NCBI GenBank assembly: GCA_049999805.1
Contig: JBNGIO010005257.1
Coordinates: forward strand, 1 to 34,250
Reading direction: 5' to 3'
DNA: 34,250 bases
Source: Folioceros fuciformis
Lineage: Eukaryota
Shown piece after piece: positions 5,331 to 32,534 of the stretch; position 1 is the first letter of the stretch, and each line of letters opens with the position of its first letter. The notes below the pieces were generated by a model, which was not told the DNA's origin, searched no databases, and saw nothing but the letters and a program-made list of their open reading frames with translations. A program made the position numbers and the translations under genes.

Positions 5331-6176
5331 GAACGCACCCCGTCTTCCGCCCGCATAGTGTGGAAAACAAATAAACACTTATTCAAGGGCTGTCAACTGC
5401 ATGCACGAAGTCTCTGTTCGGAAACGTCTGGGACATGAAAGAGGTCGGTGCTTGCAGGGGGATTGCAAATCCCAAACATGTGTGTCAACTCTACTACCTA
5501 CGCACGCCCCCTTGATGTGCATCTGTTGTGGTCTATCTTTGCAGAGTCTGTGTTTGACAACGATCCTGCTCACGAATCAGCCCTCTCGCAGTCTCTTGGG
5601 TGTTGCGGGGAGAAAAGGATGAGTTCAGTACATATTTATATGTAAATCTGACCAGCGTTGGGATAGGGCACCGTACGCGTAGCGCAACCACTCGCTGCCG
5701 TCAAGCGAGTCCGCCTCCCTCAGCCACATCCCCTGGATCCGGCGGGTCCCAAATAATGCACCACACGAAGGCTATTGCTTTCGGCTGTTGTTGGATGACC
5801 TTCTAGCCCGGGCAGACGGTCACGCCCACCGGAAGTGGCCTGCCCGGAGCCCGAGGCAATCTATGTCCATGTCCATTTGCAGATTGGGCTCGAATTGAGA
5901 CTCGGACAGGATCGTGTCATGAGGGCCTCTGTGCGCCCTAGGCAAGGGTGTGGCGACGTTGGGATCCTCGTTCGAGAGCAAGTTTGAGCGGGAGGCAATT
6001 CAGCATCAGGTTTGTTTACAACCATGATTAGCTGCTTTGATCACCTTGCATTTCAGCAGACAGGATGGATACGTTTGTTGGGTAGGATCGGGTATTGTGG
6101 AGCTGGGATTGTTGCCCGTGGCATGATTGTGCAGTGCTGAAGCGCTTTCCAGGTGTCTGTCGGCTTCGTCTTTGCC

Positions 6177-7127
6177 ATGGGGACTTTCAGGATGCTGGAT
6201 GCTGCCAAGGTTTCTGGAGGTGTGGGGTTTGTGGATGAGTTGCGCAGCGGGGGAGGACATCTGGACAGATGCCGGGATGGTTTGTCGCAAACGGGGGTTA
6301 GGGCAGCGCAGCTCACTTGCCGACGAAACGGGGGAAGAGCTGGCATGCATTGTTCCCCGAGTCCTGGCCTTTCCGCTTCGTTGTCATTGCGAAAGCGCCG
6401 TGGTCAATGGACTCAGGGGCAAACAGACGTTGGCTCAAGGCTGCTTGGGGTGTGTTGTGTGCGAGGGAGCTCGGCGCCGGGTGCTTTGGCTTCTGAAATG
6501 TCTACCACTGTGGCTGAAGGCCCGAGAGAGAGCAGAATCGAGGAAAGGACCTCCACTGCTAACACAGTGCCAGATACCCCTCTCGTGGCCCAGTCCAAGT
6601 TGCTTAGAAAGCTCAGTGATGCCAATCTGTGCATCAGGCAACTTCGCAGGGAATTGCAAGCAAGGGATGAGACCATTGCAGATTTTAAAGCTCAGATAGT
6701 GGCACTGGAGCTTGAGCTCAAAGCCTTGGCAAGGTTATCACTCGAAGTTGCTACCGCTGCTGCGGTGCCAGGTACGCGAAAGATCAACGGCCGATATATT
6801 CAATCCCACCTTGCCGTCCGTTTGGAAGAGATCCATAATGGATTGCTTTCACAAATTCGTGAGGTGGAGGTGATTCGTGAAATAGAACTTGTGTGGATGG
6901 GCATGGCTGAATCAGTGCAAGTGATGGGATCTTTCGATGGATGGACCGAGGGGGTGGAGATGTCCCCTCTGGTGACGGGGGCCTACACGAAGTTCGTAGG
7001 GACGCTTAAGTTACCTGTAGGCAGGTACGAAATCAAGTTTTTGGTGGATGGAGAATGGCAGCTATCTCCTGAATTACTTGTCGTAGGAGAGGGTTTGGCT
7101 TGCAATAATCTTCTGGTTGTGGAATAA
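6177..7127 (+). CDS. PTST1: PROTEIN TARGETING TO STARCH 1 (coiled coil + CBM48), single coding exon, 316 aa
   Basis: ORF 6153-7127, first ATG at 6177. Coiled coil LLRKLSDAN...ELELKAL, linker RKINGRYIQSHL and C-terminal CBM48 (WMGMAESVQVMGSFDGW...GRYEIKFLVDGEWQLSPE...NNLLVVE) are colinear with Arabidopsis PTST1 as recalled. Possible 5'UTR intron 6010-6152 (CAG|GTTTGT...TTCCAG|G). Confidence 0.92.
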   Translation: MGTFRMLDAAKVSGGVGFVDELRSGGGHLDRCRDGLSQTGVRAAQLTCRRNGGRAGMHCSPSPGLSASLSLRKRRGQWTQGQTDVGSRLLGVCCVRGSSAPGALASEMSTTVAEGPRESRIEERTSTANTVPDTPLVAQSKLLRKLSDANLCIRQLRRELQARDETIADFKAQIVALELELKALARLSLEVATAAAVPGTRKINGRYIQSHLAVRLEEIHNGLLSQIREVEVIREIELVWMGMAESVQVMGSFDGWTEGVEMSPLVTGAYTKFVGTLKLPVGRYEIKFLVDGEWQLSPELLVVGEGLACNNLLVVE

Positions 7128-7430
7128 GGAATATAGGAAACTGCCGAAGTTGTCCCCCACATTCGAGGTGAGTCTGCACAGTACAGGGAAATCATGCATA
7201 AAACTGGCTTTTGAAAATTGATTATTTATTTTTAAGTTTGGATTAAATCTTCCTACATCCCTACTGTTCCCGTTGACGCGGTTGGAACTTGGCGGTAGCC
7301 CCCATTCGTTTAGGGTAGATGAGTTTCTATCTTTTCTATAATGAAGTTTCCTTCTGGTTGATTCGTTAGGGTAAGTAAAACTAGCTATACACCGACCTGT
7401 CAGGTCAGCCTCCAAGGTTCACGAGAGGTT

Positions 7431-10400
7431 TCAGCAGATAGCAATCCACGACCGGAACCGGTCCACAAAAGACTCTATAAAGCCTTCACAATTGGCGGTA
7501 TACTCTTTAACTACTACCCCATCCTTGGACTCGAATGTGTTGGCCTGCATACCGCATGGAGCTCAGAAGGTTGCACAAGATACACCCAACTTGGGCGTTT
7601 CTGCAACGACGAAGGTACCTGTAGGAAGAAAGGTCTCGGAGTCTTCCTCCCAATAACAATACTCCTGAATGCGAGCAAATAATCCGGTACCTTCGTGATC
7701 TACACAACACAACAAGACACGCAAAGCCCTTGTGATTGACCAAAACATAGTTTCTCGCCTTCCACCTTCAGTAAATGGAGATCATACCTTGTCGTACAGA
7801 GAATTTCCGCTGTTTACATCAGCAGTGGATTTGTAGACTTGTAACCGTGTCAACAGTTCCGTTATTGCCGGCACACCCACGGATTGTATCTTGTCCCGCT
7901 CGATCAGGATCAAAGCGTCATCATCTCCAAGCTTGTGGAGTTGTAGAAAGGGAGTACCTCTGTTCCCGGTAGACACCTGCTGCTTTACCAGCTCCTGTGC
8001 CGATGCTGCGAGCAGAACCTGGAGGATAGCGAACCTTGCCTGCAAAACGTCTGCTCTGTCAAAAATCCACTTCAGAACTAAAGCACAGTGCTCACCTACG
8101 ACGCACTCCGTCGAATGCTTCAGATGTTACACAGGTAAAGGGAGAAACATTATTAACGTCTAGAACCGACACCGACCTGCATGTGTGCTTGTCGCCATGT
8201 ACAAGTTTGAGGAGCGTAAAACTCAAGCGCTAACAAACCGGCTCTGATCTGCGCACCAGAGAAGGTGCTTGCAGAGCACAGTCTGGTGATGCACAAAGCG
8301 GAAAACTTCATGAGTATAATTTAAACGCACCATGATCAGCCAGGTTGTGTACATAACTTCTTCGGCGTCTGAGCCCGAATGGCCCAAGATGTTGAGAACC
8401 TGTAGTTGCGATTGTCACCAGGCCAGCTACATCCATGTTTAAGGGCTCGATCATAGCGACCCAAAGCCATCTCATCGGATCCATACCTCCAGATTGGCAG
8501 AGAAGAAAACTCCTACACACTCAGCTCTGCACTCTTCATATGAGGAGCTATTAGGGCCGAACACCGTATCCCACGTTTCTCCAGGACCATAGCACGAAAT
8601 GACTGCCTCGTCTGTGAACGGATGGATTACCTTGCAAGGTGGCGGATATACAATCAGTCACGAATGGTCAAAGACGGGATAATTTTTGTTCTGAAATCAG
8701 ACAATGTCATTGAATCCAAATCGGGCATCGACCAATTCTAGATGCATACTTACTTTCCCATGGTCATAGTTGTACGAACCATCCTGTCGCTTAGAGAAAA
8801 GCTTTCCGGAGCCATGGCCTAATAGTTCATGACAAGCAACCTGAACCAACATTGCATCTGCTTTGCGGCGTTTGAATATTTCCCTGTCCTCCTCTTTCAA
8901 AAACGGTACCTGTCAGTAGACAACTATTACTAACAGAAGTCACGCATTCAAGAGAGAAGTCTGGGGACTAGCAAAAGGACAAGCCTCAGAAAGATCGTGG
9001 CACCGTATTAGTGTCTTCAGAATCCGTGACAAGTAGCACGTTGAAGTACACAATGTTCTTGAAACCAATCGACTGCAACAATTAAAGTTATCATCCTTGG
9101 GGTTAACACCAAATAAGGACTTCGGAGCTCGAAACCTGTTGCAAGAGCTCGATTCGCTACCACCAGCACACCTGTCTGACGTCCGGATAATTTGGGATAT
9201 TCACTCCACCTGGTATACTGCCGTTGGCGAAAACTAGGAGCTGGAAGACGTCACAAGTCAAGAGATCGAAGTACATTGAGATGGCATCAGAAGGCAAAGC
9301 AGGTGGATATAGCACTCACGTTAAGGGCTAAAAATTCAGGCTTGTGCCACTTTTCATTCTCAAAGTCTTGTGGCCAGGGTAATAGCGGAAGAAAGGACTC
9401 GGCTGCGTTTGCAAGGGCTGTAAACCTTCCCGTTTGCTCCTGCATATATAAGCCGCGGGACTAGTTATCATCTTACAGCCGCCGATGCACATTGCAATCC
9501 CTCGTGCAGCTAGTGTGTCAAAGCTGCTGATCACCTCGTTCACAATGGCGACATATCCTTCAAATTCAGCCCTTAGACCAAGAGGATCACGATAAGTCTC
9601 TGTAAACCTGCAGCAAAGTCAATAGACCGATTTGATAAACTAACATACCGCATTATTCCTCCAGATGTTCCACACCAGAAGACTAGATCAGTATCATACA
9701 ATAGGTAGGTTTTAGGTGCAGTCAAAACCCCATGTTGCAATCAACGGGAGATTTTCCGTAAATCCAAAATTTCTGAGCTTCTTTATGGGCATTGATGGAG
9801 CCCGTCTCGAAGGACGTTATGAGACTGCGACAGCACGAGGAAGTTTGTATGTCAGAAACCATCAGGAGTTGTTGGCCTGGCAGGCGCACCTGTTATCCTT
9901 AAGGATGCAGTAATTACTTCAACAATTCGGCTCGCTGGTTATCGTCAGTAGCATAAAGTAAAGCCTCCTTCAGATGTAGTACCACTTCACAGAGGTCGTC
10001 CATGTGATCACCGAATACCAAATGAACGAGAAACTTACCCTGCCCACGTCAGCTTAGGGTTAAATGTCACCAGTATATTAGTTGTTTCACAAAAGCAAGC
10101 AGAAACGAGTGTCGCACAAGATCTATTTGCATCTTCAGCAAAGACAAGAACTGTTTCACACTTAAAGGATTTGGTGTGGGGATCACCTCCTGTTCAAACG
10201 TCTGCGTCGGGTGTTTTATAGATGATGCGATGAGAAGATCGTACTCCGGAAGTCCCTTATCTCCTGACGATGTGGAATGTCTTTTTGTCAAGCGAGTGTT
10301 CCATGCCTCTATCCCTTTCGTCAACATCCAGGCCTGAAGCAGCAAACAAAGCGCATGGTTTATCTGGGGACCAGGCAACGACGCACGCACTGCTCAACAG

Positions 10401-11840
10401 TAAGAGCAGAGAAGAGTAAACGGCGTCCTGTGCCTGGACAGCGTAGACTTCTTCCTCGGTGATGTCCCCCAAGTAGTACATAGTGACGCCCTTGGGTGGA
10501 AGTCCGAGCTGCCTCTCACCTAATCAGTTTCAAGCGAGAATATATTTAGCACCTGGTCCTCATCCTCTCTACAACACTGAAAGCCACGGAAGTTACGACA
10601 TGATGGCAACGTTATACGCGTGTAACCTGGTTCCAGAGAAAAAATCTTTTGCCTGGTTGACTCCCATAGATCAAGTAACCTGCGATTCCTCTCACCATCC
10701 TGTAATTACGATAGGCGAGTCAGCGTTTATGGTGAGTCCACAAGTTTCACCGTGGATCCTTCAGCCGATGCTCCAGGATTTGGCAGCTTACATCCAGTCT
10801 ACAAAGTCTGAGGATCTGGTCAAACTCGTCGTCCGGCAGCCCTGGGATAAATTTGCTGTCTCCAAAAGCGAGGTAGTTACCTGAAAAAAAGCAAGGCCGT
10901 GACAAGGTGCAAGCGTTGATAAGGCAAGCACCAAAGGCTCCTCTTGATCTGGCCAAAAAGTGGTGCTAGAACTTGCCAACTTGCTATTCAAACTGCGAAG
11001 AGGAAAAAGCCTTTCCCAGTGACAGTTCTGGATCACTGATGCCATTGATTAGCTTCATGAAGCGCTGGAAGCGTCAATTGTGGACACAACCGTGCGCACC
11101 GAACAGGCCGGAATCCATAACTTACCCATGTTGGCCAGGAAGCAGGTAGCGTACGCAATGAAGCTCTCCCAAGATTCCTCCTTAACTCCCGCCTCAAGGC
11201 ATGCAGCTTTCAGGTCTGGCGCCCTCCTCTCAGAGAAGGCCAGCAACAGCATCTTAAGTATCCGTGGGCTCTCCTGTCCAGAACATGCGACGGCACGACT
11301 GTCACAACCGAGGACATCAAATCTTTGGTCTGAAACAACTTCGCCTACATTCTGTCACTCAGAGAGCCGGGCCGTCATGCCGGGCATCCTGAGAGCAGTC
11401 ACGGAACATAAAATTCTCAGGCAGTCCACTGACTGTAGCCGCCGCTCTGCAGTCCTCCTCCTCGTCCCTGTGGATAAGCGGATCGATGGCGAGCTTACCT
11501 CGGACAGCTGAGTGGCGCAGATTCGGGAACCAGCCCACGCCGCCCTTGCCAAATGGTGCGAGTAGTACTTCTGCTGCGTCGTCCGCCTGGCCCAGTCCTC
11601 CTTGCAAGAGACGAAGCCGATGTACAGATCGCGGGGAACCACATGGTATTTCCTGACGTCGTCGAAGGGGACGTTGCGATGTCCCGAGAGCAGCAGGGAT
11701 CCCCACCCGGCGGACGGCCTCGAGTTGTCCATGGTTGACAGATTCTCCTCGAGTTCGATCTCCTGCCTCCTCCGCTTTTCCGGAGGACTGTCTCGACCGC
11801 CTACCGCCGACAACCTGGTGCCTCCGGATCCTCCCTCCAT
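7431..11840 (-). CDS. DPP3: Dipeptidyl peptidase III (peptidase M49), HEXXGH type, 19 exons, about 780 aa
   Basis: Hand-spliced exons: 11840-11499, 11273-11126, 10880-10751, 10679-10627, 10519-10434, 10333-10187, 10039-9918, 9824-9729, 9607-9535, 9439-9320, 9240-9172, 9072-9004, 8909-8754, 8630-8487, 8399-8331, 8248-8177, 8039-7788, 7699-7619, 7544-7431 (2343 nt, open frame). Motifs: NMGNYLAFGDSKF, ETYRDPLGLRAEFEG, GVNIPNY, HELLGHGSGKL (HELLGH at 8831-8814), YEECRAE (8537-8520), WRQAHMQAR. Confidence 0.95.
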
Positions 11841-12267
11841 TTTTGCTTGCCTCTCCGGCGCAGTCGCTCCTCAAAACCGGTCGTGAAGCGCGGACAGCCG
11901 CCCGCCCTGCCTGACATGCAGCAACGATCCATGTCCTCGGACAAGGACGGACAGCGATAGGAGCTCCGCTGAGCTGTCTCAACATAACAGCTCACGGACT
12001 AACAGACCGGTAACAGCCTTCCGGAGGCCGCCGCAGTTTGAGGTCGACGACAGTCGTGTCCCGACGCGAACTGATCACGTCCCTGTGGCATCTGCCGAAG
12101 ATTCCGATGGAGAACCGATGTGAAGGCCTTGGGACCTACAATCCACGCTATGGCTTGGTCGCAACATGAACCGCCCCAGCCGTAGCTCGCTCCTGCTTCA
12201 AAGGCTGCCAAGTTCATCTTCGTTCATAGGCTGCCAAGTACTGGTACCACGGAGGCTGTAGACGTGG

Positions 12268-13459: not shown

Positions 13460-14153
13460 CGTTATTAAATATAATAATATTATATTTATTTATTATTATT
13501 TAGTTATTTTTTACTATTGAAAAGGAAATGGAAAGTTCTATCTACTCTAAAAGATAAAAAGAACAACAATAGGCCAAAAGGGTACTAACCCCTTCGAACA
13601 ACATTCTCAAAAACTACCTATTGCTCCCATAATGTTGAACCTACGACATTGCTAAAGAAGTTGTTTGACTTGCACACGTTGTTATTGTAAAAACCGGGTT
13701 GGTCAATGCTCTTTGCAAAGCAATGGATATGCATTGTCCAAAAGAAGACTACAACATTGAAAAGAGAAATAACACTAGTCTTATGACTTTGATATACCCT
13801 TGCGCACTCTTTGATAAATCTTGAATAGTACTTGCCCAAGGGCCTACGGGTTTCAAGAGCAAGAGGGATAAAAATATGCCCGTCTGGCAAGAAAGAATAC
13901 TTGTGGACTTTGGTGCTTGTACAACCCTCCACCGCACATCTAGGGAGGTTGATGGCGATATGCCCATAAATTGAATGCCTAGTGAGATTTGTAACAACCA
14001 CATCCATGACACAAACTTGTTTCCCCTAGTGAAAATAAGGTCAGTTATAAATGAAACTTTGTTGTGCAAAGTATACGGACTCTTCTTACATGGCGGAAAC
14101 CCACATAACAACATCCCTTGTAAAATGGGTTTATCCTCAAACCCCTTTTTCAA
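13460..14153 (-). mobile_element. Degenerate 3' fragment of a non-LTR retrotransposon with a restriction-like endonuclease (CRE/R2-type RLE) domain
   Basis: Frameshifted ORFs 14153-13749 and 14007-13618 together give GF.HVRR...TDLIFTRGNKFV/MDVVVTNLTR...TKVHKY...FIPLALETRRPLGKYYSRFIKECAR. This matches the D..D..K.KY..F.P..ET.G pattern of RLE domains as recalled. An A/(TAA)-rich tract follows on the minus strand (about 13512-13462). Confidence 0.6.
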
Positions 14154-14470
14154 CCTAAAGATTGTTTTTTCTATGCTAAAGAATCAAACAAATAATGGTT
14201 ATTTTGAAAAGTTTAGATTTTCCTTGCACAAAAAAAAATATTTCTTATTTTTCAAGTTATTGAATTCAAAGGGTTTTAAGAGATAAAGTTGTTCTCAAGT
14301 TTAGTTTGATTACAAATGTATTGAATTTTTGTAGAACATGATTGAAATCCATGAACGTAAAAAAGTTATCACTCGTTTGTCCTAAGACTAGTTTTTTTCT
14401 TTGATGACCACTTGATGCGTTAGATTTGTGTGCTATGTTAAAAGGACATGGATATCGTTCATATTTATAG

Positions 14471-14508
14471 TTAGGGTGGTTTAGGATTTAAAACCCTAAA
14501 CCCTAAAA
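14471..14508. repeat. Short interstitial telomere-like repeats (TTAGGG/TTTAGG then CCCTAAA x2)
   Basis: Sequence TTAGGGTGGTTTAGGATTTAAAACCCTAAACCCTAAAA. Confidence 0.55.
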
Positions 14509-14645
14509 CATTTAAACATCAAGGATGCAAAACACGCTTCAAGTCCTTACTACTTACTCTAGGTTTAGATCATCCAAAAAGAAGAGGACTAGTCAAGATG
14601 ACTTCATATTCTCATTACAAAACTATGCCAAACAAGGTAAAAATA

Positions 14646-15085
14646 ACTTTAATGGGATCCCTAAAGAGAAGGTAGCTACGTTACTTTGATGAGATCCGTA
14701 AAGGTGGCTAGATACATACTTAGATGGGATACGGTTAAAGAAAGGTAGCTAGCTTGGTCACGTAGATAAAGTCTCTAAAGGGACAATAGTTAGGTTCAAT
14801 GAAACTTAGATAGGGGTGGCTAGATACATACTTAGATGGGATCCCTAAAGGGAAGGTAGCTAGCTTGGTTACTTAGATAAAATCCCTAAAGGGACAATAG
14901 CTAGGTTCAATGGTACTTAGATAGGCTTCGAGAAGGGAACATGGTAGGAAGGTATCTAGGTGGAGTTCCTAAAGGGAAGGTAATGAGCTTCATCTGCACT
15001 TGGATGGGTTCCCATAGGGCTAGCAAGTTTCATTATTGCTTAGATGAAGTCTTTACAAGGAAAACAGCTAGATTCACTATGCACT
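14646..15085. repeat. Degenerate minisatellite of about 11 units (26-45 bp) with a ~112-bp higher-order duplication
   Basis: Units start ACTT(A)GAT and the consensus is about ACTTAGATGGGATCCCTAAAGGGAAGGTAGCTAG. Unit starts are near 14646, 14683, 14718, 14760, 14804, 14830, 14871, 14915, 14954, 14998 and 15038. Block 14703-14814 is nearly repeated at 14815-14925. Confidence 0.85.
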
Positions 15086-16025
15086 ATGGTATAAGTTGTT
15101 AAGTGAAAAGTCCCATATCATAATTTTATCCTTAGTAGACTATGATGGACTTCTTCTTCTATTACACATTATTTTTTGAACTCTGCAAAGAAATTACATC
15201 TTTACCTCCTATATAGGGAATACACGTGCACATCATACTTTTAGGTTCAATATAATATAGTTTATATTTATAATTATCATATTAAATTTTTAAAATTAAT
15301 TTTAATAAAATTTTACTACAGAGCATATCTTGCTTAAAATACATTCCTAAAAGGATCTAGGTGGAGCAATAAATTTTATATGACATAATGTAGAAGGTAA
15401 GTATATATAGAATTTCATATATAAAATATTTATTAAAAAGTATTTTTATATTAAAAACCATCCATAAGGAAGTCAATGTGTGAGCAACCATACATTAGAA
15501 AGCTACTATTCATATACCATCATTATCATCATTGCATATAGTTATAGTCATAATTCACCCTTATAAATTTAAAGGTTTACTTATATAAAGTTTATCCTAA
15601 AAAATTACCTGTAGCATTTATGTTATCCTTTTGAAATACTAATTAAGCTTATACTTCATAAACATTATTTCTTCCACAACCGCTCTCCAATATGCTTGTA
15701 CCTGCGATGGAGAGGTTTTAGATGCTTACTTTTTAATATTTATATATACGATAATGTACAAAGGAACGACTGTGAAGGCCAATAGCTATTTGTTCATGGA
15801 AATCTGAAGAACAAGTAGAACCATGCGGAAGAGACGTAAACAGTAGCCAAAAACACGTTTTTGGTAGGATAGGAACTGAAATGTCTACATCAAGATCTAC
15901 AGAGAATACAGGATAACTCTTACAAGCCGCATTAGGGTTCTACAGACGATATTAAGTACAAAACTCGCTTTAGAGACAAGAAAACATCTTTACACAGAAC
16001 ATCTTAGTGACCGAACACCTCATGA

Positions 16026-23191: not shown

Positions 23192-24736
23192 TCAGGTCGG
23201 AATGACCGGGATGATTGTAGTGCCCTCGTTGTTAATACCACTCGAGTTAGTTAGGGCACCAGTTTCACGAGACTGACTGCCCTTGGTGAACATACCTTCT
23301 AAGTGATCCAAACTTGGCTGGAAAGAATGAACAACAGATGTGTAGCGCTGGCATTCAGCCTCTTCCGAATAATCCACATCATAGGGGCATGAGGGAAAGC
23401 TGTGAAGCGATTTGCTCGTAACACTGTAAAGCAGAAGTATTGGAGTGCCCCGTACGAAGAGCGCAAGTTTGTCCCCTTGGCCTGCGAAGAGAAACCCGCG
23501 ATGGCGATTATGTGGCAACAGTTCGAGGAGGACTTCTGATTCTATTTTGTCAGTTTCGTGCCATGTCCCCCCATCAAGCTCCCAGACGCAGACACACATT
23601 CCGCTTTTCCCGCTGTCATTGTGCACTTCTCCAACGAGGCAAAGCCTTTCCTGAAGTTCGATGAGATTACAAGAGATCCATGGATTTGACCAGTCTACCG
23701 AGTGTCGCGTGACAAAGCTGCATTCAGGGACAGGAATTACCGAAAAGGAGTCCTCTTGGTCTGCATAGCATACGACTATAAGGCCATAAAGCTTAGACTC
23801 GGCCAACCAGTATCTCCGACCATTCCATGCAGTGATGTTCCCCATGATCCGAGAAATTGCAACTGGCACAATGTGTTTCGATGTCTCCCAAACTTCATTG
23901 CCAGTCTCATAGGCGCAAATTGTCATTTGCAAATAGTTAGGTCCTACCTCTTCTGATCCGTCGTCATAAACCTTGTGATCCGGAAACTCGTGAGCACCGT
24001 TGTCCGGTAGATCCTGATGCCTGATGAGAAACACTCTGTACGAGCTCTGTGATTCGTGATAGCTCATAGATACGAAATGGTATTCACTTCCAAGAGGAGG
24101 ATCAGGTACCGCTTCCCATGTCTTCCTGACCGGATTGACCACCACAACTGGTGGCATATTAGGTGAATGCAGAAGGCAACAGAGCAGCCCGCCAGCGCAT
24201 GCAGCACTGATGACTCGAAGCGCATGGGAAAGAAATTCTGGCACTAACATCTGCCAATATTGGTCAAGAGAACCGACGCCATTCTGCACACTACTTCCAC
24301 AATTTGCCTCACTCTCCACTGCCAGCTTCAGGAACCATGACACACTCCCGGAAGTTATCTTGTCAACTATCCAGATCAAAGACGCGGACTCAGCCTGCAC
24401 AGACCTCACAAATGCCGGTTGTCCAACTTCTGCCGGATCCGTTTTCTCTCTTGTCCGTTGCTCCTCGCCCTTCTCCATCACCGGCTCGCTCCCAGGAATT
24501 GAAACTGATGTATCCGGTTCCAAACTAGGTGTTGTGACGTCCACCAGCAGGAGCACCGGTACCATGTTATTTCGAGGCAGAACCAATGGTGCGCACGAAC
24601 TAAGATCCTGGTAACATTCAAGATCCGACATGGACCGATAGCCGGATTCACTTCCCTCTTCTGATTCAAGATCGTCGCCATCACTCTCCAGCTCAGCCTC
24701 GTCCAACGCTTTGCGGAGGAATCCCATAGTTTCCAT
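23192..24736 (-). CDS. F-box/kelch-like beta-propeller protein lacking the F-box (paralogue of the adjacent gene), 514 aa, intronless
   Basis: Single ORF. C-terminal ~390 aa is colinear with the neighbouring F-box protein (WFLKLAV, AGGLLCC, VVVNPVRKTWEAVPDPP, SCNLIELQERLCLVGEV, PSCPY...FQPSLD). The N-terminus is acidic and low-complexity, with no LP.D/..R...VCK.W motif. Confidence 0.8.
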   Translation of the reverse strand: METMGFLRKALDEAELESDGDDLESEEGSESGYRSMSDLECYQDLSSCAPLVLPRNNMVPVLLLVDVTTPSLEPDTSVSIPGSEPVMEKGEEQRTREKTDPAEVGQPAFVRSVQAESASLIWIVDKITSGSVSWFLKLAVESEANCGSSVQNGVGSLDQYWQMLVPEFLSHALRVISAACAGGLLCCLLHSPNMPPVVVVNPVRKTWEAVPDPPLGSEYHFVSMSYHESQSSYRVFLIRHQDLPDNGAHEFPDHKVYDDGSEEVGPNYLQMTICAYETGNEVWETSKHIVPVAISRIMGNITAWNGRRYWLAESKLYGLIVVCYADQEDSFSVIPVPECSFVTRHSVDWSNPWISCNLIELQERLCLVGEVHNDSGKSGMCVCVWELDGGTWHETDKIESEVLLELLPHNRHRGFLFAGQGDKLALFVRGTPILLLYSVTSKSLHSFPSCPYDVDYSEEAECQRYTSVVHSFQPSLDHLEGMFTKGSQSRETGALTNSSGINNEGTTIIPVIPT

Positions 24737-24995
24737 CGCTCAGAGCTCCCGGAGGGTGGTGGTCGGAGGGGTACAATTTATGAGGCGAAAGGCTTTCAAA
24801 CACAGACGTGAAAGAGGTCGAGCGTGCCCGATTGTTCCAGTAGGTTTGTTACAGCCGTTTGTACTTTAAACGAAGTATGTTGATAACCAATTGTAATTGA
24901 TAAGTACTAGGGTGCACGGCTTTGCAAACTATGTACCAGGAGAGAAGAGAGTTCATGCATTGAGATCGAAAAGCTGATAAGTAACCTCGTAAGTT

Positions 24996-26363
24996 TCACA
25001 AATTGTTAACCACATTCAAAGAGTGAATGAAGGAGTCTTCTATTGAATCCAGTCTAGGCTCGAAGGGCAGAACTACCGAACAGCACAAGGCCTCCCACCT
25101 ACTAGACTGCTCGACATAGTAGGGGCAATCCGGCAGCCTGCGGAAACATTTTTGAGAGAAGTCGTAAGCCAGAGATGCTGAGCAGCCATGCACACTTAGC
25201 CACATTACATCATCCCGGGCCACAAAGGTGAAGATGCCCTGAAGGGGGCTCCTGTCGAGGAGCCTGATGTAGGTCTCCGCTGGGACACGGCCGATCTCAT
25301 GCCACTGCATTGGCTTCTGAAGATACTCCCAGATACGAATGTTGACCTCATGGGTGCCATCCTCACTGACTACTTCTCCAACCAGCAGGAGCCGCCCTTG
25401 CTGCTCCACCAGGTTGCAGGACAGGGAAGCCATGCAGTGAAGGCCCTCAAACCGATTACGTACCCAAGGAAACATGCAGGTCCTGTCAGCCAAAGGACAT
25501 GGTGGAAGCTGGACCTTTGTCCAGACATCCTGGTACACGTTGTACGACAGCACACTGTGGCACAGCGGGAGCCTGTCAACAGTGAGCCAGTAGAGCCGGC
25601 CGTCGCAGAAAGTGGCATTGCCTTCAATCTCAAAGCCTCTGTACACAGGAAGGATGTGAACTGAGGTGTTCCATGACCTACTTCCAGAGTCGAAGATGCT
25701 TACCATGAAGTGCAAAAAGGTTTCGAACTCATCTTCCTGGCCGTAGCCATCGTCGTCTCCATCGCCTTCGTAGTAGTCACTAAGGATTACCTTGTAAGTC
25801 TTGGAGCCTAGATTGTGCACCATGGCCACTTTTTGAAACCTTCTGTTAGGGGGATCCGGTAGAGTCCGCCATGACCTTGTCAAGGGATTAACTATAACAA
25901 CAGAGCGGGCGTACTCCAGATTAGAGGCAATCGCACAGCACAGCAATCCCCCGGCAGAAGCAACGGAATGGATGTTCCACGTCGGAAGAAAATCCAGCGA
26001 CACCTTGTGCCATTTGCTCAGGCAAGGATCATGGCCTCCTGGAACTGTTCCGCTGCCGATATCCACCGCAAGGCGCAGGAACCAGGGCAAACGAGACGAA
26101 ATCATGGCGTTTTGCTCTAAGAACTTCCTCGCAGACAGCAAAATGTTCCACTTCTTGCAGACTTTGCGGAACCTGCAAACACTCAACGGAGGCAGGTGAA
26201 CCAGCACTCTTTCCACCACATCTGCCGGAAGAGCGGCCCACACCTCGGGCTCCATCTCTACTCCCTCTTGCGACTGCTCCTTGGAGCAATCCAACATGAG
26301 AACCACAACATGGCATTGTCTGCGGGCCGCGGTAGATCTAGATCCTTCCCCCCTCCATGCCAT
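24996..26363 (-). CDS. F-box/kelch-repeat-type protein, intronless, about 455 aa (alternative start 26255)
   Basis: F-box WAALPADVVERVLVHLPPLSVCRFRKVCKKWNILL, followed by HDPCLSKW, VASAGGLLC, IVNPLTRSWRTLP and C-terminal FEPRLD, typical of plant F-box/kelch-like (UFO/LCR-related) proteins. Confidence 0.9.
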   Translation of the reverse strand: MAWRGEGSRSTAARRQCHVVVLMLDCSKEQSQEGVEMEPEVWAALPADVVERVLVHLPPLSVCRFRKVCKKWNILLSARKFLEQNAMISSRLPWFLRLAVDIGSGTVPGGHDPCLSKWHKVSLDFLPTWNIHSVASAGGLLCCAIASNLEYARSVVIVNPLTRSWRTLPDPPNRRFQKVAMVHNLGSKTYKVILSDYYEGDGDDDGYGQEDEFETFLHFMVSIFDSGSRSWNTSVHILPVYRGFEIEGNATFCDGRLYWLTVDRLPLCHSVLSYNVYQDVWTKVQLPPCPLADRTCMFPWVRNRFEGLHCMASLSCNLVEQQGRLLLVGEVVSEDGTHEVNIRIWEYLQKPMQWHEIGRVPAETYIRLLDRSPLQGIFTFVARDDVMWLSVHGCSASLAYDFSQKCFRRLPDCPYYVEQSSRWEALCCSVVLPFEPRLDSIEDSFIHSLNVVNNL

Positions 26364-27235
26364 GGCACAGGTTCCCACAGCTCGTCACACATACACACGG
26401 TATCCGCTCCACTTTGATAACCCACGCAGCACAGGGATCCTCCTCTCCCTTGGGCCGCAAAGGCTCCTTTCCTTCTAGGAGAAAACGAAGGCCACATCAG
26501 ACAGAGAATCGATGACCATCTTCGACTCCGATCTGATTGCAGAGATCCGAAACGAAGGTAAGGTTGGATGATCTCCGGAAATGCTATTTCAAAACTCTTA
26601 CTAACACAAGATCCTGGAGCACACGATACGATTGCACACCATGGCATACAGTTCGGGAAGTACAACCAGCCCGTTCGAGAGTTAACCCTTTCATCGAGCG
26701 TGGATACTGAGTCGTTCATTGCGCAAAAATTACGGATGTATTGGATGAAGGCTAGGACTCACCCGGTGCGAGGCCCAGGCGTTCAAGCGTCAGTTCACTT
26801 CGTTTCTTGACGTTTTTCTACAGTGCCTCCTGCTTGCGACCACCTGTTAGCCCAATCAACTGTTTCGCACGTTCAGTGTGGGACTCCAGATAACTGAGCC
26901 AAAAGCTCCCAGTCTGTAATCCAGACCACCGTGACTCACGACCCACAGCCAGATAAGGCTCCCTGCAATGTAAGGATGCCTGCATGTGATTTTACATCCG
27001 TTAGCTCCGGCTACTTCATTGCACCCACCGTCGGAGAACGACTAGTCTGCTACATCCATCTGCGGCATGTCCGACAGCAACCTTGAGCCCCGTTGGAGGC
27101 GAGTTGTCAAAAGGGTAGCATTGGGAAGGATACGACAGAACATGGTCAACGCGGGCCATTTCGTTGCAATCTCCCTCGTTCCAGGTTGTAAGCAGGTACA
27201 GAACCTCGCCAGAGGCTCTTTCCAGCCACCGCAGG

Positions 27236-29110
27236 CTACGGCAAGAAGCTAAGCAGATGCTTCCGTCTGTCGTTCAGAACTGCAACAAAAGTTGGGCCTA
27301 GGCTTTTCGACAGCTCTTGCAAGCCACCCTGGTCTCCTTCTCTCTGACAACGTTTCACCATCTTTTGTAGTAGTTCCCTCGATGGTTTGTAGCCCGCAGA
27401 CACCATTATCTCCAATGCGTCGAAAGCTGCTCTGACGTCTCGATTTACAACCTGAGCTTCAATGAGAAGAGAGTGCGTTCGGTAGTCTGGACTCACCCCG
27501 ATCTGTGCCATGTACCCGGATATTTGCAACACTTGAGCTGTTTTCCTGCTCTTGCCAAAGGCATGCAGCAACGCATTGCAAGAATGCACATCGGGTCTCA
27601 AATCGAAGACCGACCCCATGGCATCAAACGTCTGGTAAGCCCGGTCTGCATCCCAGATCTTGGCACTGGCAAGAATGACACAATTGATGGCCGCTGCAGA
27701 TACCGGATCCCCAGCTTTCAACCTATCCTCCAGCTTGAAGTAAGCAGCATCGACGGCAGCTGCTCCTCCTTTGGAGCAAGCCCTGACCAGGGGCATCAAA
27801 GATCCAAACGGCGATAGAACTTCCGGGTCGAAGTCAGGGTGTGAGTCTCCATGGGCCACCTCCAACTCATGCAACGCACTGAAAGCAGAGTTCAAATCCC
27901 CTGCAGCTGAGAATGCATGCAGGCGAGCCAGAAAGGCAGGAACACTAGGAGGGCAGGATTCTCCCAGAGACTGCTTCAAGAGATGCCAAGCTTGGTCTGC
28001 CAGATCCTTGTTGGCAGTCCGAGCAGCCGTGCTAAGCACAGCGATCATCCCCCCCTCATCCATGAGCAGATGATTCGTGAGCTTCCATTTCGACCCATCG
28101 TTCATAAATTGGAGAGCCAGCGTAGCGCATTCTGCATCATCCACCTCCGCGGCCACAGCAAGAAGCTCCGCTAGAGTCGCCAAGATGGGAGTCACCGACT
28201 GACTCTTGAGCTCCTTCAACACAGAAACAGCGACGCCGGTCCGCCTCAACCTGCCTGCCGCAATGAGCACCTCGTTGTAGGTGATCCTGCTGGGCACAAA
28301 CCCCTTCTCCACCATCGCCTGCATGTGTTTCAGAGCTGCATCCAGACGACGATGCAATGCACACAAAGCCACCACAAAATTGTAAGAATCTCCGTCGGGC
28401 TGAGATTCCGGGCCTCCCTTCTCCATCCTCTGCACAAGCTGCTCTGCCATTTCCGAGTTCCTGGCTCGGAAAGCAGACCGCATCACAAAGGAGAATGAGA
28501 CCAAATTCGGCGTCAGCCCCTCAGTCTCCATGTCATCCACAACACGGACCAAGTCCTCGGGAGCGGCATTCGCTCGCAGCTTGGCCTGAAGCAGCAGGTT
28601 GTAGGCTACGACACTGGCCTTGTTCGGCTGGCCTGCGCTGTCAGTCCCTTTCTTCCACTCCTCAAACATGTTCACAGCCTCCTCAGCCTTCCCCTGCGAC
28701 AGGCTGCTAGACATCTCCCTAGACAAGGTGGCCAGATCGAAAGCGGCAACTGGCAGATGCGGTTCCTGAGGCCGTAATGGCGGCCCAAAGCTGCCCTCCT
28801 GCAAAGTGGGTGCTGCATCTTCCAAACTGTTCAGAGGCGGGGACTCATTGTCGTCCCCTGGCTCAGGATACGAGGTAGCGACTTCCTGCTGAAGGTCCAG
28901 CTGCGGGAGCTGCCATGTAGGTGCACTGGTGCTGATTTTCCTGCCCTCTGCTGCATTGCCTGATCTGGCTGGAACGTCTACCGGCTCGACTCCCTCGGGC
29001 CTCAGAAACCAAGATGCAAGCTGGGCTTGCTGGGAGGAGGAGCCCCTGGAGTGGGACACGGAGGTGAGACAGCGGACCAGCGCCCGCTGCGCACCTCGCA
29101 AGATTGCCAT
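27236..29110 (-). CDS. P-class pentatricopeptide repeat protein, likely mitochondrial, At1g26460-like, 624 aa, single exon
   Basis: First ATG at 29110 gives an Arg/Ser-rich presequence-like N-terminus (MAILRGAQRALVRCLTS). Blocks GQPNKASVVAYN, DEGGMIAVLSTAART, LSPFGSLMPLVRACSK, AAINCVILASAKIWDADRAYQTF and PSRELLQKMVKRCQRE match Arabidopsis At1g26460 as recalled. Confidence 0.88.
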   Translation of the reverse strand: MAILRGAQRALVRCLTSVSHSRGSSSQQAQLASWFLRPEGVEPVDVPARSGNAAEGRKISTSAPTWQLPQLDLQQEVATSYPEPGDDNESPPLNSLEDAAPTLQEGSFGPPLRPQEPHLPVAAFDLATLSREMSSSLSQGKAEEAVNMFEEWKKGTDSAGQPNKASVVAYNLLLQAKLRANAAPEDLVRVVDDMETEGLTPNLVSFSFVMRSAFRARNSEMAEQLVQRMEKGGPESQPDGDSYNFVVALCALHRRLDAALKHMQAMVEKGFVPSRITYNEVLIAAGRLRRTGVAVSVLKELKSQSVTPILATLAELLAVAAEVDDAECATLALQFMNDGSKWKLTNHLLMDEGGMIAVLSTAARTANKDLADQAWHLLKQSLGESCPPSVPAFLARLHAFSAAGDLNSAFSALHELEVAHGDSHPDFDPEVLSPFGSLMPLVRACSKGGAAAVDAAYFKLEDRLKAGDPVSAAAINCVILASAKIWDADRAYQTFDAMGSVFDLRPDVHSCNALLHAFGKSRKTAQVLQISGYMAQIGVSPDYRTHSLLIEAQVVNRDVRAAFDALEIMVSAGYKPSRELLQKMVKRCQREGDQGGLQELSKSLGPTFVAVLNDRRKHLLSFLP

Positions 29111-29478
29111 CACCGCATCCAAGCTACAGCCCGCTGACCCAGGTGCGGTGAAGTACGTGCCTATGCAGCAGGCGAATAGGTTTAGGGCAATTGCCTTTTG
29201 CCTCTGAATTTGAAGGAGACGAGAGGTAGATGGTTTGGCATCTTACACGGAGGCAATCAAGGAGGAGGTATGGGTAGGTAAGGATCTTATTCTGGGGTGA
29301 CAGGAAACGTGGGTCTATGCAAGAACTGCGAATTATGTATTCATGGGGACAGCAATCTGTACATCTGGGTTACCACTGCAGTCACCGGAATCCTCTTGTC
29401 TCTTTCGGCCGATGAACTGTGAATGGGTGCTGTACAGGAAGGTCTTGCTCCTTGAGTGGCCTCTGTTACAAAGTCCGG

Positions 29479-32400
29479 ATGAGGGCGTGGTTCTGGACCA
29501 AATTGCAAGGAGTTCACAGGACCACATGGGAGCCCGTTTTGAAGAGCACTCGGTACAATTCGCCTCGTGTGAAGCGGAAGCAGGCATTTTGGGCACAGTT
29601 TCCTACCGGAAAAGTACTTCCAGACCATTTCAGTTCTGGGAACTCAGTCGCAGCTCATGTGAGGCTACACAACGTAGCTCCGCGCTCTGTTGAAGAAGTC
29701 TACACGTTGTGTGACGAGGGGCGACTCCATGAGGCCCTGCTTGCAGCGGAAGGTGTGGGCCAGCGAGGGATGGCACTCACAGTAGACTGCGTTATCTGCT
29801 TGATCCAAGGATGCGGCAGAAAGAAAGATCTAGGAGCTGTCAGGCGTTTGCAAATGATAATGGTGGATCAAGGGTTTAGTTCAGACATCTTTCTTGGAAA
29901 CAATCTTATTCACCTGTTTGCCTCATGCGGTGCGTTGTTGGAAGCAAAGCAAGTGTTTCGTCAGACTTTGGACCCGAATGTGTACTCCTGGCAGGCTATT
30001 ATCTCAGCCCATGCTAACCATGGTCAGGGTGATGAAGCTATCAGGTTGTTTCAGGAAATGTTGTGCTCAGATGTGAAGCCAAACAACCACGTGTATGTAG
30101 CTGTCTTGAAAGCATGCGCCGTCTCGGGGGGCTTGGCTAGTGGGAGATGGATTCACAGCTATATGGTGGAAAGCGGATTTCAGTCAAATACGTATGTGGG
30201 GAACACAGTCATCGACATGTATGCGAAATGCGGAAGCACGGACGAGGCCAGAAAAGTGTTTGATGGCTTGTCACCGAGGAACTTAGTTTCGTGGAATGCC
30301 ATGATAGCTGGATACGTTAATAGTGGACAAGGTCAGGCTGCTCTTGATCTGTTTCAGAAAATGCGAGCAGAGGACATCCAACCAGATAAGAGCACTTTCT
30401 CAAGCATCTTCAAAGCTTGTGGCAACTTAGTAGCCATTGATCAGGGCAGACAAATTCATTCGGAGTTTACTGAAAATGGGTTGCCGCTCGGAGTAGTGGT
30501 TGGAAATACTCTGATTGATATGTATGTTAGATGTGGCAAACTAGAAGAGGCCCGCAGAGTGTTTGATGCGTTGGAAGCTCGGGATGTGATTTCATGGAAT
30601 GCCATGATTGCCGGATATGCCCAGGATGGACATGCTCTAGAAGCTCTAGAATGTTTCGGGCAAATGGAGCAGGAGGGTGTTGTACCTAACAAGGTTACTT
30701 TCATAAGCCTCCTGAAGGCCTGCGGGAACATTGCCGCCCTGGGTCAGGGCCGGAAGATTCATGCTCAGCTTGTCGAAGCTGGACTTGATGCTGATGTTGT
30801 TGTTGGGACCAGCCTTGTGCACATGTATGCCAGATGTGGGAACCTTGATGAGGCGTATGGTGTATTTGAAAAGTTGACGGAAAGGAGTGTCGTGTCTTGG
30901 AACGCCGTCATTGGAGCATATGCCCAGCATGGGTTTGGGAGAGAGGCATTACAACTGTTTGAGCAGATGCAACAGCAGGGCTTTAAACCAGATGACATCA
31001 CCTTGGTTTCTGTACTTTCTGCGTGCAGCCATGCTGGTCTCTTAGAGCAGGGATATCAATTATTCAAGTCTATGCTCAAGGATTTCAGCATTAAGCCAGG
31101 AATGTATCATCACGCATGTATGGTCGACATGCTTAGCCGGGCTGGCCACTTGCAGCAAGCAGAGGACTTCATCAAACAGATGCCTTTTGAGCCTGACGTG
31201 GACATTTGGATGACAGTCCTTGGTGCCTGTCAAGCATTTGGGGATGTCGAGTTGGGAAGGCGGGCATTTGAGAGTATCATTAGGCTGCAGCCGCTGAACG
31301 AGGCAGCATATGTCCAGATGTCCAACATTCTTGCCGCTGCAGGGAGGCCAGACGATGCAGCCGAACTGAGAAAGGACATGCGCGATGCAGGAATGCTGAA
31401 GTCACCAGGGAGGACGTGGATAGAGGTAGACGATCAGATGCACAGTTTCTTGGTAGAGGATAAGGATCACTCTCTGCGGCAAGAAATTTATGCTAAACTG
31501 AGGCAGCTGGCACCCTTAGTAGAAGCGGAGATGAGAAATAGAGTTCTGGCAGAGGATAGCTGTTCTGACACTGAACCCAAGGGCACACAGTATGCGGACC
31601 AGGGGGTGTCCAGTACAAACTCTATCAGGTAAGCTTTCCCCCACTGAGTCACTCTACGCTCTATATTGATGAATGAACAAAGGGCTCGTTGTGTACTGCA
31701 TGCTAATCTCTCTCGTTTCTTTGCCTGCCGTGCAGTGTGAGAGAGCCGTTATGCTCTTTTAGCTCAGCAGAAGATGTGAGCAACCTTTGTGAGCAGGGGC
31801 GACTGCAAGAAGCTTTGCAGATAGTAAGGGGTAGGATCCAACAAGACATGCCCATTTCCAAGCTCCTATTGTTCAATCTTCTTCAGTTCTGCATCAAAGC
31901 AAAAGATGTGGCAACTGGCAGGCTCGTGCATACCCTGATCAGGGAGAAAGGGCTCGACTCTGATGTTTTCTTCGGGAACAACCTTATTCGCTTATTTTCC
32001 TCTGGTGGATGTTTGTCTGAAGCACGCCAAATTTTCCTTGGAATCACATCACCAAATGTCTACACCTGGCAGGCTATTATTTCCGCCCACGCCAAACATG
32101 GGCAAGGTAGTGAGGCCATCAAGTTGTACCAGCAGATGCAAATCTCATGCGTAGTGCCAAACACCTACGTCTATGTTGCAGCCTTAAAAGCATGTGCTTC
32201 CTTGGGGGCCTTGAAACAGGGCAGGTGGATACATGCCCATGTCCTTGAAGCCGGCCTCCAGGCAAATGTCTTTGTAGGAAATACACTCATCGACATGTAC
32301 GCCAAGTGTGGGTGCTTGGAGGAGGCAAAGCGAGTGTTTGACAACTTGGCAGCCAAAGACGTTGTTTCATGGAACACGATGATTGCCGGATATGCACAGC

Positions 32401-32534
32401 ATGGACACGGGGAGGAAGCGTTTGGACTCTTTCAGAAAATGCAGCACGCAAGGATGACGCCGGACAGGGCCACATTGTCAAGTATTGAGAAAGCATGTCG
32501 TCATCTGACATCACTTGTACCAAGCACATCGTGA
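29479..32534 (+). CDS. PLS-class PPR protein: 14 PPR motifs, E1, E2, E+/PG box, then (after intron 31629-31735) a second PLS array; about 982 aa spliced or 717 aa unspliced
   Basis: Exon 1 29479-31628: L-S-(P-L-S)x3-P2-L2-S2-E1-E2, then SPGRTWIEVDDQMHSF; no HxE/CxxC deaminase motif or DYW end. Donor AG|GTAAGC at 31628/9, branch-like TGCTAAT at 31701, pyrimidine tract and acceptor TGCAG| at 31735. Exon 2 31736-32534 is in frame (L-S-P-L-S-P plus partial L). Start codon uncertain. Confidence 0.85.

Follow-up and report, generated by a model that had tools for sequence, protein, structure and literature searches.

Dipeptidyl peptidase III (DPP III) of plants is known from enzymes that differ from their animal and fungal counterparts in several ways. 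According to the available portions of two papers on the M49 family (PMC9079729, PMC9820243), the characterised plant DPP IIIs, Physcomitrella PpND/PpDPP III and Arabidopsis Nudix hydrolase 3, carry a Nudix box, the pentapeptide HECCH and the motif EEAKAD, whereas HEXXGH and EEXRAE/D are assigned to animals, fungi and other bacteria; a pentapeptide-type enzyme shares about 14% identity with human DPP III (PMC9820243). The hexapeptide type of M49 is defined by HEXXGH in the accessible parts of PMC9101112 and PMC9079729. In human DPP III, as described in the available part of PMC9101112, H450, H455 and E508 bind the zinc, E451 acts as general base, hydrolytic activity depends critically on H568 and Y318, E316, N391 and N394 anchor the substrate N-terminus, and R669 binds the C-terminal carboxylate. 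Here we describe an M49 gene in a stretch of DNA of 34,250 nucleotides (nt), hereafter called the window, whose coding span (7431..11840, minus strand) comprises 19 exons and encodes 773 amino acids (aa) in a frame open from ATG to stop codon. It is very probably the canonical stand-alone DPP III (MEROPS M49) of a non-liverwort land plant, vertically descended from a green-algal ancestor.

An earlier note on this DNA had characterised the plant DPP IIIs as Nudix-M49 pentapeptide fusions, in agreement with what is available of PMC9079729 and PMC9820243. The novelty that it attached to the hexapeptide gene holds only in part: liverwort and Klebsormidium proteins of this kind are already public, some of them named "dipeptidyl peptidase III" (UniRef/NCBI), but no paper on them was found. 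Likewise, no paper on hexapeptide-type DPP III in bryophytes or green algae was found in literature searches that lacked most subscription journals. The family is known, and the gene described here is a member of it in a lineage where hexapeptide DPP III had not been noted.

M49 signatures and predicted catalytic residues

The stop-to-stop frames at 7431-11870 on the minus strand directly show HELLGHGSGKLF, EECRAE, ETYRDPLGLRAEFEG, GVNIPNY and RQAHMQ. In the spliced 773-aa protein ETYRDP begins at aa 371, GVNIPNY at aa 444, HELLGH at aa 505, EECRAE at aa 562, and RQAHMQAR, which straddles intron 16, at aa 620. One exon open reading frame (ORF) of 71 aa matched the solved yeast (3csk) and human (3fvy) DPP3 chains at E ~2e-9, far beyond chance. 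Moreover, in a Pfam scan run on 17 separate ORF pieces, 15 of which cover the gene's exons, PF03571 was matched at E <= 0.01 in 11 of the 15, colinearly over profile positions 17-548 of 548; nine pieces scored at or above the 21-bit gathering score of PF03571 (best 65, 54 and 52 bits). No Nudix Pfam domain was matched in the scanned ORF pieces, including exon 1, its alternative frame and the upstream ORF 11999-12223, and the Nudix-box pattern GX5EX7REUXEEXGU had no match in the 773-aa protein; the absence of a Nudix box, which the earlier note had claimed, is confirmed in both ways.

Both signatures of hexapeptide-type M49 enzymes are present. HEXXGH appears as HELLGH at aa 505-510, aligned to human positions 450-455, and EEXR(K)AE(D) as EECRAE at aa 562-567, with E563 aligned to human E508; they stand where plant-type enzymes would have HEXXH (HECCH) and EEAKAD. 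Human numbering was transferred through the 737-aa koala DPP3, whose HELLGH at 450 and EECRAE at 507 are at the human positions given in the accessible part of PMC9079729. The residues kept, in human numbering, are W300, E316, Y318, N391, N394, N406, H450, E451, H455, E507, E508, A511, E512, H568, R572 and R669; among them E371 of the window protein is equivalent to E316, Y373 to Y318, N446 to N391, N449 to N394, H623 to H568 and R731 to R669. Since the zinc, catalytic and substrate-anchoring residues that were checked are kept, with K670 as the exception, the protein most likely has zinc dipeptidyl peptidase III activity. By analogy with the human enzyme, it would be a zinc exopeptidase whose two lobes close around short peptides and which cleaves dipeptides from their N-termini. 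The zinc would be held by H505 and H510 of HELLGH and by E563 of EECRAE, the attacking water would be activated by E506, and H623 and Y373 would be the equivalents of the human residues crucial for hydrolysis. The free N-terminus of the substrate would be anchored by E371, N446 and N449, and its C-terminal carboxylate would be bound by R731. The enzyme would act in the late stages of peptide catabolism and would be located in the cytosol or the nucleus.

ETGE is the KEAP1-binding motif of human DPP3. It is found at positions 480-483 of the koala protein and at the aligned place in Nematostella; the window protein reads FTDE there (aa 535-538 in the alignment to koala DPP3), just as the earlier note had it, and the other green-lineage rows are variable at this position. 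Because the ETGE loop is not conserved, a KEAP1-type moonlighting role would not be expected.

Phylogenetic position

An exon-only protein search gave one match among eight candidates, MARPO_0048s0075 of Marchantia polymorpha (710 aa, PF03571). When this Marchantia protein was used as the query, 1271 matches were obtained from 7999 scored candidates, the best 120 of which are considered here. Liverworts come first, with eight entries (Marchantia, Calypogeia fissa, Riccia fluitans and R. sorocarpa); they are followed by Spirogloea muscicola, the contig protein P0008 and Klebsormidium nitens, then by the chlorophytes Myrmecia bisecta and Chromochloris zofingiensis, and last by animals, fungi, Nannochloropsis and Planctomycetes. 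None of these best 120 of 1271 matches carries the name of a moss, hornwort, lycophyte, fern or seed plant, and they come from a database that does include lycophyte, fern, gymnosperm and angiosperm proteomes. The BLASTP identity of the window protein is 46-50% to the proteins of liverworts, Spirogloea and Klebsormidium and to P0008, and 41-43% to those of animals.

The main maximum-likelihood (ML) tree was computed with IQ-TREE from 34 rows and 728 columns under LG+C20+F+G4 by PMSF; no NUDX3-type sequence was included, and support is given as ultrafast bootstrap/SH-aLRT. The window protein groups with the six liverwort rows at 100/99, this group with Spirogloea and P0008 at 100/98, and the clade formed by adding Klebsormidium has 99/97, while the green lineage is separated from all other rows at 99/99. 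The branching order of chlorophytes, Klebsormidium, Spirogloea, and the window with the liverworts is that of the species tree, and this agreement supports vertical inheritance of DPP III, going back to the green alga from which land plants arose. The same placement of the window protein was obtained in a quick 41-row tree and in a 141-row FastTree, the latter adding 112 representatives (50% clusters) of at least 550 aa from a library of 1.84 billion proteins. The search of this library with a streptophyte profile gave 4968 matches at E <= 0.001, of which 150 were listed. Nothing nearer to the window protein than the earlier matches was found among these 150; only P0005, which was already in the set, falls in the green clade, and none of the 112 further representatives lies inside it. 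Seven new representatives were looked up, among them proteins of koala, Monosiga, Drosophila and Mastigamoeba.

Exon structure and transcription

The gene was modelled by TBLASTN and a spliced dynamic-programming alignment with the Marchantia protein as guide, which gave 19 colinear exons with GT-AG borders, a start ATG at 11840 and a stop codon at 7431-7433. Contigs of run X3 (organism A, probably RNA) are spliced over the DPP III gene, whereas X1 DNA contigs read through its introns; sampled words of the stretch were recovered at 41% in X3, against 94% and 79% in two DNA runs. The DPP III gene is intact, transcribed and spliced, its transcription following from the X3 contigs without introns. 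Fifteen X3 joints were shown and 5 further ones were not; the homology model agrees with the contigs at 13 of the 15, and the remaining two were corrected, both keeping the frame. On the plus strand the intron ends read CT..AC at 14 of the 15 shown joints, and the 15th reads GC-AG. The final model has 18 introns of 74-245 nt (mean 116), 17 of them GT-AG and one GC-AG. The latter is intron 5 (10433..10334, minus strand), whose GC donor is supported by a spliced X3 contig in which the GT six bases upstream, picked by the homology model, is unused. The last intron runs from 7618 to 7545 according to the X3 contig, which differs from the homology model. In an X3 contig unbroken over 11498-11915, the first in-frame ATG is that at 11840; since an in-frame stop at 11871-11873 precedes it within the same contig, no further coding exon is joined on upstream there. 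The spliced model and X3 together bear out what the earlier note had read from the DNA, an intact 19-exon M49 gene with HELLGH, EECRAE, ETYRDP, GVNIPNY and RQAHMQAR, with two splice sites refined. The exons are as follows, with the evidence in brackets.

11841..11915, minus strand: 5′ untranslated region, minimum extent (X3 record 9 covers 11498-11915 unbroken; frame listing)
11499..11840, minus strand: exon 1, codons 1-114 (model; X3 contig pieces 11122-11272 and 11498-11915 join it to exon 2)
11126..11273, minus strand: exon 2 (5′ joint seen in X3; 3′ joint from the homology model only)
10792..10880, minus strand: exon 3 (homology model, GT-AG; joints outside the 15 shown)
10627..10699, minus strand: exon 4 (model; 3′ joint 10627/10519 seen in X3)
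10434..10519, minus strand: exon 5, ending at the GC donor, 6 nt longer than in the homology model (X3)
10187..10333, minus strand: exon 6 (model and X3)
9918..10039, minus strand: exon 7 (model and X3)
9729..9824, minus strand: exon 8 (model and X3)
9535..9607, minus strand: exon 9, ETYRDP (9600-9583) with E371 and Y373 (model, X3 and alignment)
9320..9439, minus strand: exon 10 (model and X3)
9172..9240, minus strand: exon 11, GVNIPNY (9207-9187) with N446 and N449 (model, X3 and alignment)
9004..9072, minus strand: exon 12 (model and X3)
8754..8909, minus strand: exon 13, HELLGH (8831-8814) with H505, E506 and H510 (model, X3 and PF03571 at 65 bits)
8487..8630, minus strand: exon 14, FTDE (8618-8607) and EECRAE (8537-8520) with E563 (model, X3, Pfam and alignment)
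8331..8399, minus strand: exon 15 (model and X3)
8177..8248, minus strand: exon 16, ending in RQAHMQ, with H623 (model, X3 and alignment)
7788..8039, minus strand: exon 17, starting with AR, with R627, equivalent to human R572 (model, X3, Pfam and alignment)
7619..7699, minus strand: exon 18, revised after the transcript from a homology-model end at 7586 (X3 joint 7543->7618, cut +1)
7431..7544, minus strand: exon 19 and stop codon, revised after the transcript from a homology-model start at 7523 (X3; PF03571 517-548 of 548)

At the exon 5 joint (10331->10432 in X3) five letters fit either side, and a cut two places to the right gives CT..GC on the plus strand, which is GC-AG on the minus strand. 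Exon 1 encodes a poorly conserved N-terminal extension of about 64 aa with KRRR and then the beginning of the conserved M49 lower lobe. The extension corresponds to the first 64 codons (11649-11840, minus strand), and its basic PEKRRRQE stretch is possibly a nuclear signal. N-terminal extensions are also found in the liverwort, Spirogloea and Klebsormidium proteins, their sequences differing.

A contig of run X4 (organism B) covers 7424-7899 and is 90-95% identical to the window across the last three exons. As intron 18 is much more diverged than the exons, this contig is taken as the orthologue in a related organism. Within the 25 listed of 33 differences, 10 of the 13 exon differences are synonymous taken singly, and the 74-nt intron 18 has 12 substitutions and two indels, which points to purifying selection on the DPP III gene.

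Neighbouring genes

The neighbours of the DPP III gene are plant genes: an AMPK1_CBM protein, an OSCA-like channel (RSN1_7TM, PHM7_cyt), a Senescence-domain protein, two F-box/beta-propeller ORFs and three PPR ORFs, one of the PLS type with an E motif. The guanine-plus-cytosine (GC) content is 0.495 for the window and 0.506 for the DPP III coding sequence. The hornwort genome described in PMC7027989 has a GC content of 49.6%, a mean intron of 173 nt and PLS-class PPR genes as 7.9% of its genes, and the short introns, the GC content of about 50% and the several PPR genes of the window would fit such a genome. As for lineage, the gene tree itself resolves only a sister position to the liverworts. 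What the earlier note had said of host-sized introns and plant neighbours on both sides agrees with the introns of 74-245 nt, the domains of the neighbours and the matches of the PLS-type PPR gene.

About 300 nt separate the end of the plus-strand AMPK1_CBM ORF, at 7127, from the stop codon of the oppositely oriented DPP III gene at 7431 (region 6141-7543), and a 5119-nt X3 contig spans the DPP III 3′ end and continues leftwards past 7200; the 3′ ends of these convergent genes may be close or overlapping. The region 14001-16000, between the DPP III and OSCA-like genes, is AT-rich (GC 0.30-0.35 against about 0.50 elsewhere) and has no long ORF. Two tandem uninterrupted ORFs of 515 and 462 aa lie at 23192-24739 and 24996-26384 on the minus strand; one of them encodes an F-box with a KIB1-4-type beta-propeller, and the other a weak At3g26010-like beta-propeller (24.1 bits, cut-off 25). 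The PPR ORFs form a cluster at 27236-29242 (minus strand), 29416-31632 (plus strand) and 31707-32534 (plus strand), and it is the middle one, of 738 aa, that is of the PLS type with an E motif. For this ORF the best matches in the database are only 33-48% identical and come from Diphasiastrum, Ginkgo, Cryptomeria and ferns, so the proteome to which the window belongs is not part of that database.

Discussion

Several points weigh against our reading of the locus as an inherited, active DPP III of a non-liverwort land plant. The end branch of the window protein in the 34-row tree is long (0.66), three rows of that tree have a deviant composition, and its root was not inferred. The designation "non-liverwort land plant" derives from the gene tree and the neighbours. 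Run X3 is only guessed to be RNA, none of the listed runs that contain the stretch being recorded as RNA, and introns 2 and 3, as well as intron 4 on its donor side, come from the homology model alone. Moreover, enzyme activity is read from residues only, the residue corresponding to human K670 is P in the window protein and in all eight green-lineage rows of the alignment, and the 64-aa N-terminal extension is without known function.

It may be asked whether the gene was acquired rather than inherited. An old horizontal transfer of DPP III from an animal, fungus, protist or bacterium into the plant lineage, which the earlier note had put forward, would be in line with the M49 papers, whose available parts place the hexapeptide type in animals, fungi and bacteria and give plants only the Nudix-pentapeptide type (PMC9079729, PMC9820243), and with the patchy distribution in land plants, no moss or vascular orthologue being among the best 120 of the 1271 matches. 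However, the gene tree follows the species tree in the green lineage through four nested nodes with ultrafast bootstrap of 99-100 and SH-aLRT of 97-99, the fungal, animal and Planctomycetes rows are in separate clades, and the gene has 18 spliceosomal introns of host-like size, a host-like GC content and plant genes on both sides. Transfer is thus very improbable and was rejected: the database search and the ML tree nest the window protein with streptophyte algal sequences, the outcome that had been set beforehand as speaking against it. Contamination of the assembly by an associated eukaryote deserves even less credence. Apart from a family type unusual for a plant nothing recommends it, whereas the gene is flanked by plant-type genes within one 34-kb window, the 5119-nt X3 contig continues beyond 7200 in the direction of the adjacent gene, two X1 contigs (6797 nt and 597 nt) extend beyond both ends of the gene stretch examined, and the closest relatives are liverworts and streptophyte algae.

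Other explanations concern what the gene has become. A derivative of a NUDX3-type Nudix-DPP III that lost its Nudix domain and regained the hexapeptide could be entertained, since the two types belong to M49 alike and may occur together in plants. We regard it as having almost no chance of being correct, given HELLGH and EECRAE in place of the HECCH and EEAKAD of plant Nudix hydrolase 3 (PMC9820243, as far as available), and given 41% identity to mammalian DPP3 over 692 columns as opposed to about 14% between a pentapeptide-type enzyme and human DPP III in the same source. Somewhat less remote, though still very unlikely, is an expressed gene whose role has shifted away from peptidase activity or become specific to its lineage, for example a nuclear and regulatory role, as the long end branch and the 64-aa extension with its basic KRRR might indicate. 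The functional positions checked are kept, the change at K670 being common to all green-lineage rows, and the differences from organism B (X4) are mostly synonymous, all of which argues against such a drift.

Vertical descent of a canonical DPP III remains our preferred explanation, and the earlier note's other proposal, an ancestral eukaryotic gene retained in this lineage and lost in angiosperms, is supported by the position of the window protein as sister to the liverworts within streptophyte and chlorophyte algae (99-100/97-99). Its expression "animal/fungal-type", in turn, is a misnomer for what is the canonical pan-eukaryotic form, present in green algae and liverworts. The best 120 of the 1271 matches, no genome search having been made, suggest that DPP III was lost in mosses and vascular plants. 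It seems evenly balanced whether early land plants possessed two M49 enzymes, the canonical DPP III being retained only in some bryophytes, namely liverworts and the window lineage. Two or more losses, in mosses and in vascular plants, would then have left those groups with just the Nudix-DPP III fusion. If this were true, the statement that plants have the Nudix-pentapeptide enzyme, as it stands in the accessible M49 literature, would be incomplete, and these bryophytes would be natural systems for studying the role of each form.

No new mechanism, family or gene transfer is revealed by these findings. Their interest lies in that the available portions of the M49 literature (PMC9079729, PMC9820243) give plants only the Nudix-fused pentapeptide DPP III, and the canonical hexapeptide enzyme is also present in green algae, liverworts and the window lineage. 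Land plants would here provide a clear example of differential loss, and the plant enzyme could be compared directly with those of human and yeast, which are well studied.

Comparison with known systems

The closest known systems are the DPP III-like proteins of liverworts, namely Marchantia MARPO_0048s0075 (710 aa), two copies in Calypogeia fissa, one protein in Riccia fluitans and three listed entries in R. sorocarpa. As in the window they are stand-alone PF03571 proteins, colinear over their full length, and they form the sister clade (100/99). HELLGH is read directly in Marchantia, and the proteins of Marchantia, Calypogeia a and Riccia fluitans all align at the zinc and catalytic residues. 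They differ from the window protein in sequence (46-49% identity) and in their N-terminal extensions, and the neighbourhood of the window, with several PPR genes, one of them of the PLS type with an E motif, stands in contrast to the liverworts. The proteins of Klebsormidium nitens (719 aa) and Spirogloea muscicola (811 and 830 aa) have the architecture and motifs of the window protein at 48-50% identity; they are algal, not embryophyte, and are placed as successive outgroups of the land-plant clade. At the position of the human ETGE loop Klebsormidium has ETGA where the window protein has FTDE.

Human and yeast DPP III (3fvy, 3csk), the characterised M49 prototypes, share HELLGH and EECRAE with the window protein, which is 41% identical to mammalian DPP3 over 692 columns and departs from human DPP III in FTDE for ETGE, in P at K670 and in the 64-aa N-terminal extension. 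Arabidopsis NUDX3 and Physcomitrella PpND are M49 enzymes of plants, as that of the window would be, but they have an N-terminal Nudix box, HECCH and EEAKAD, and none of these three features is found in the window protein.

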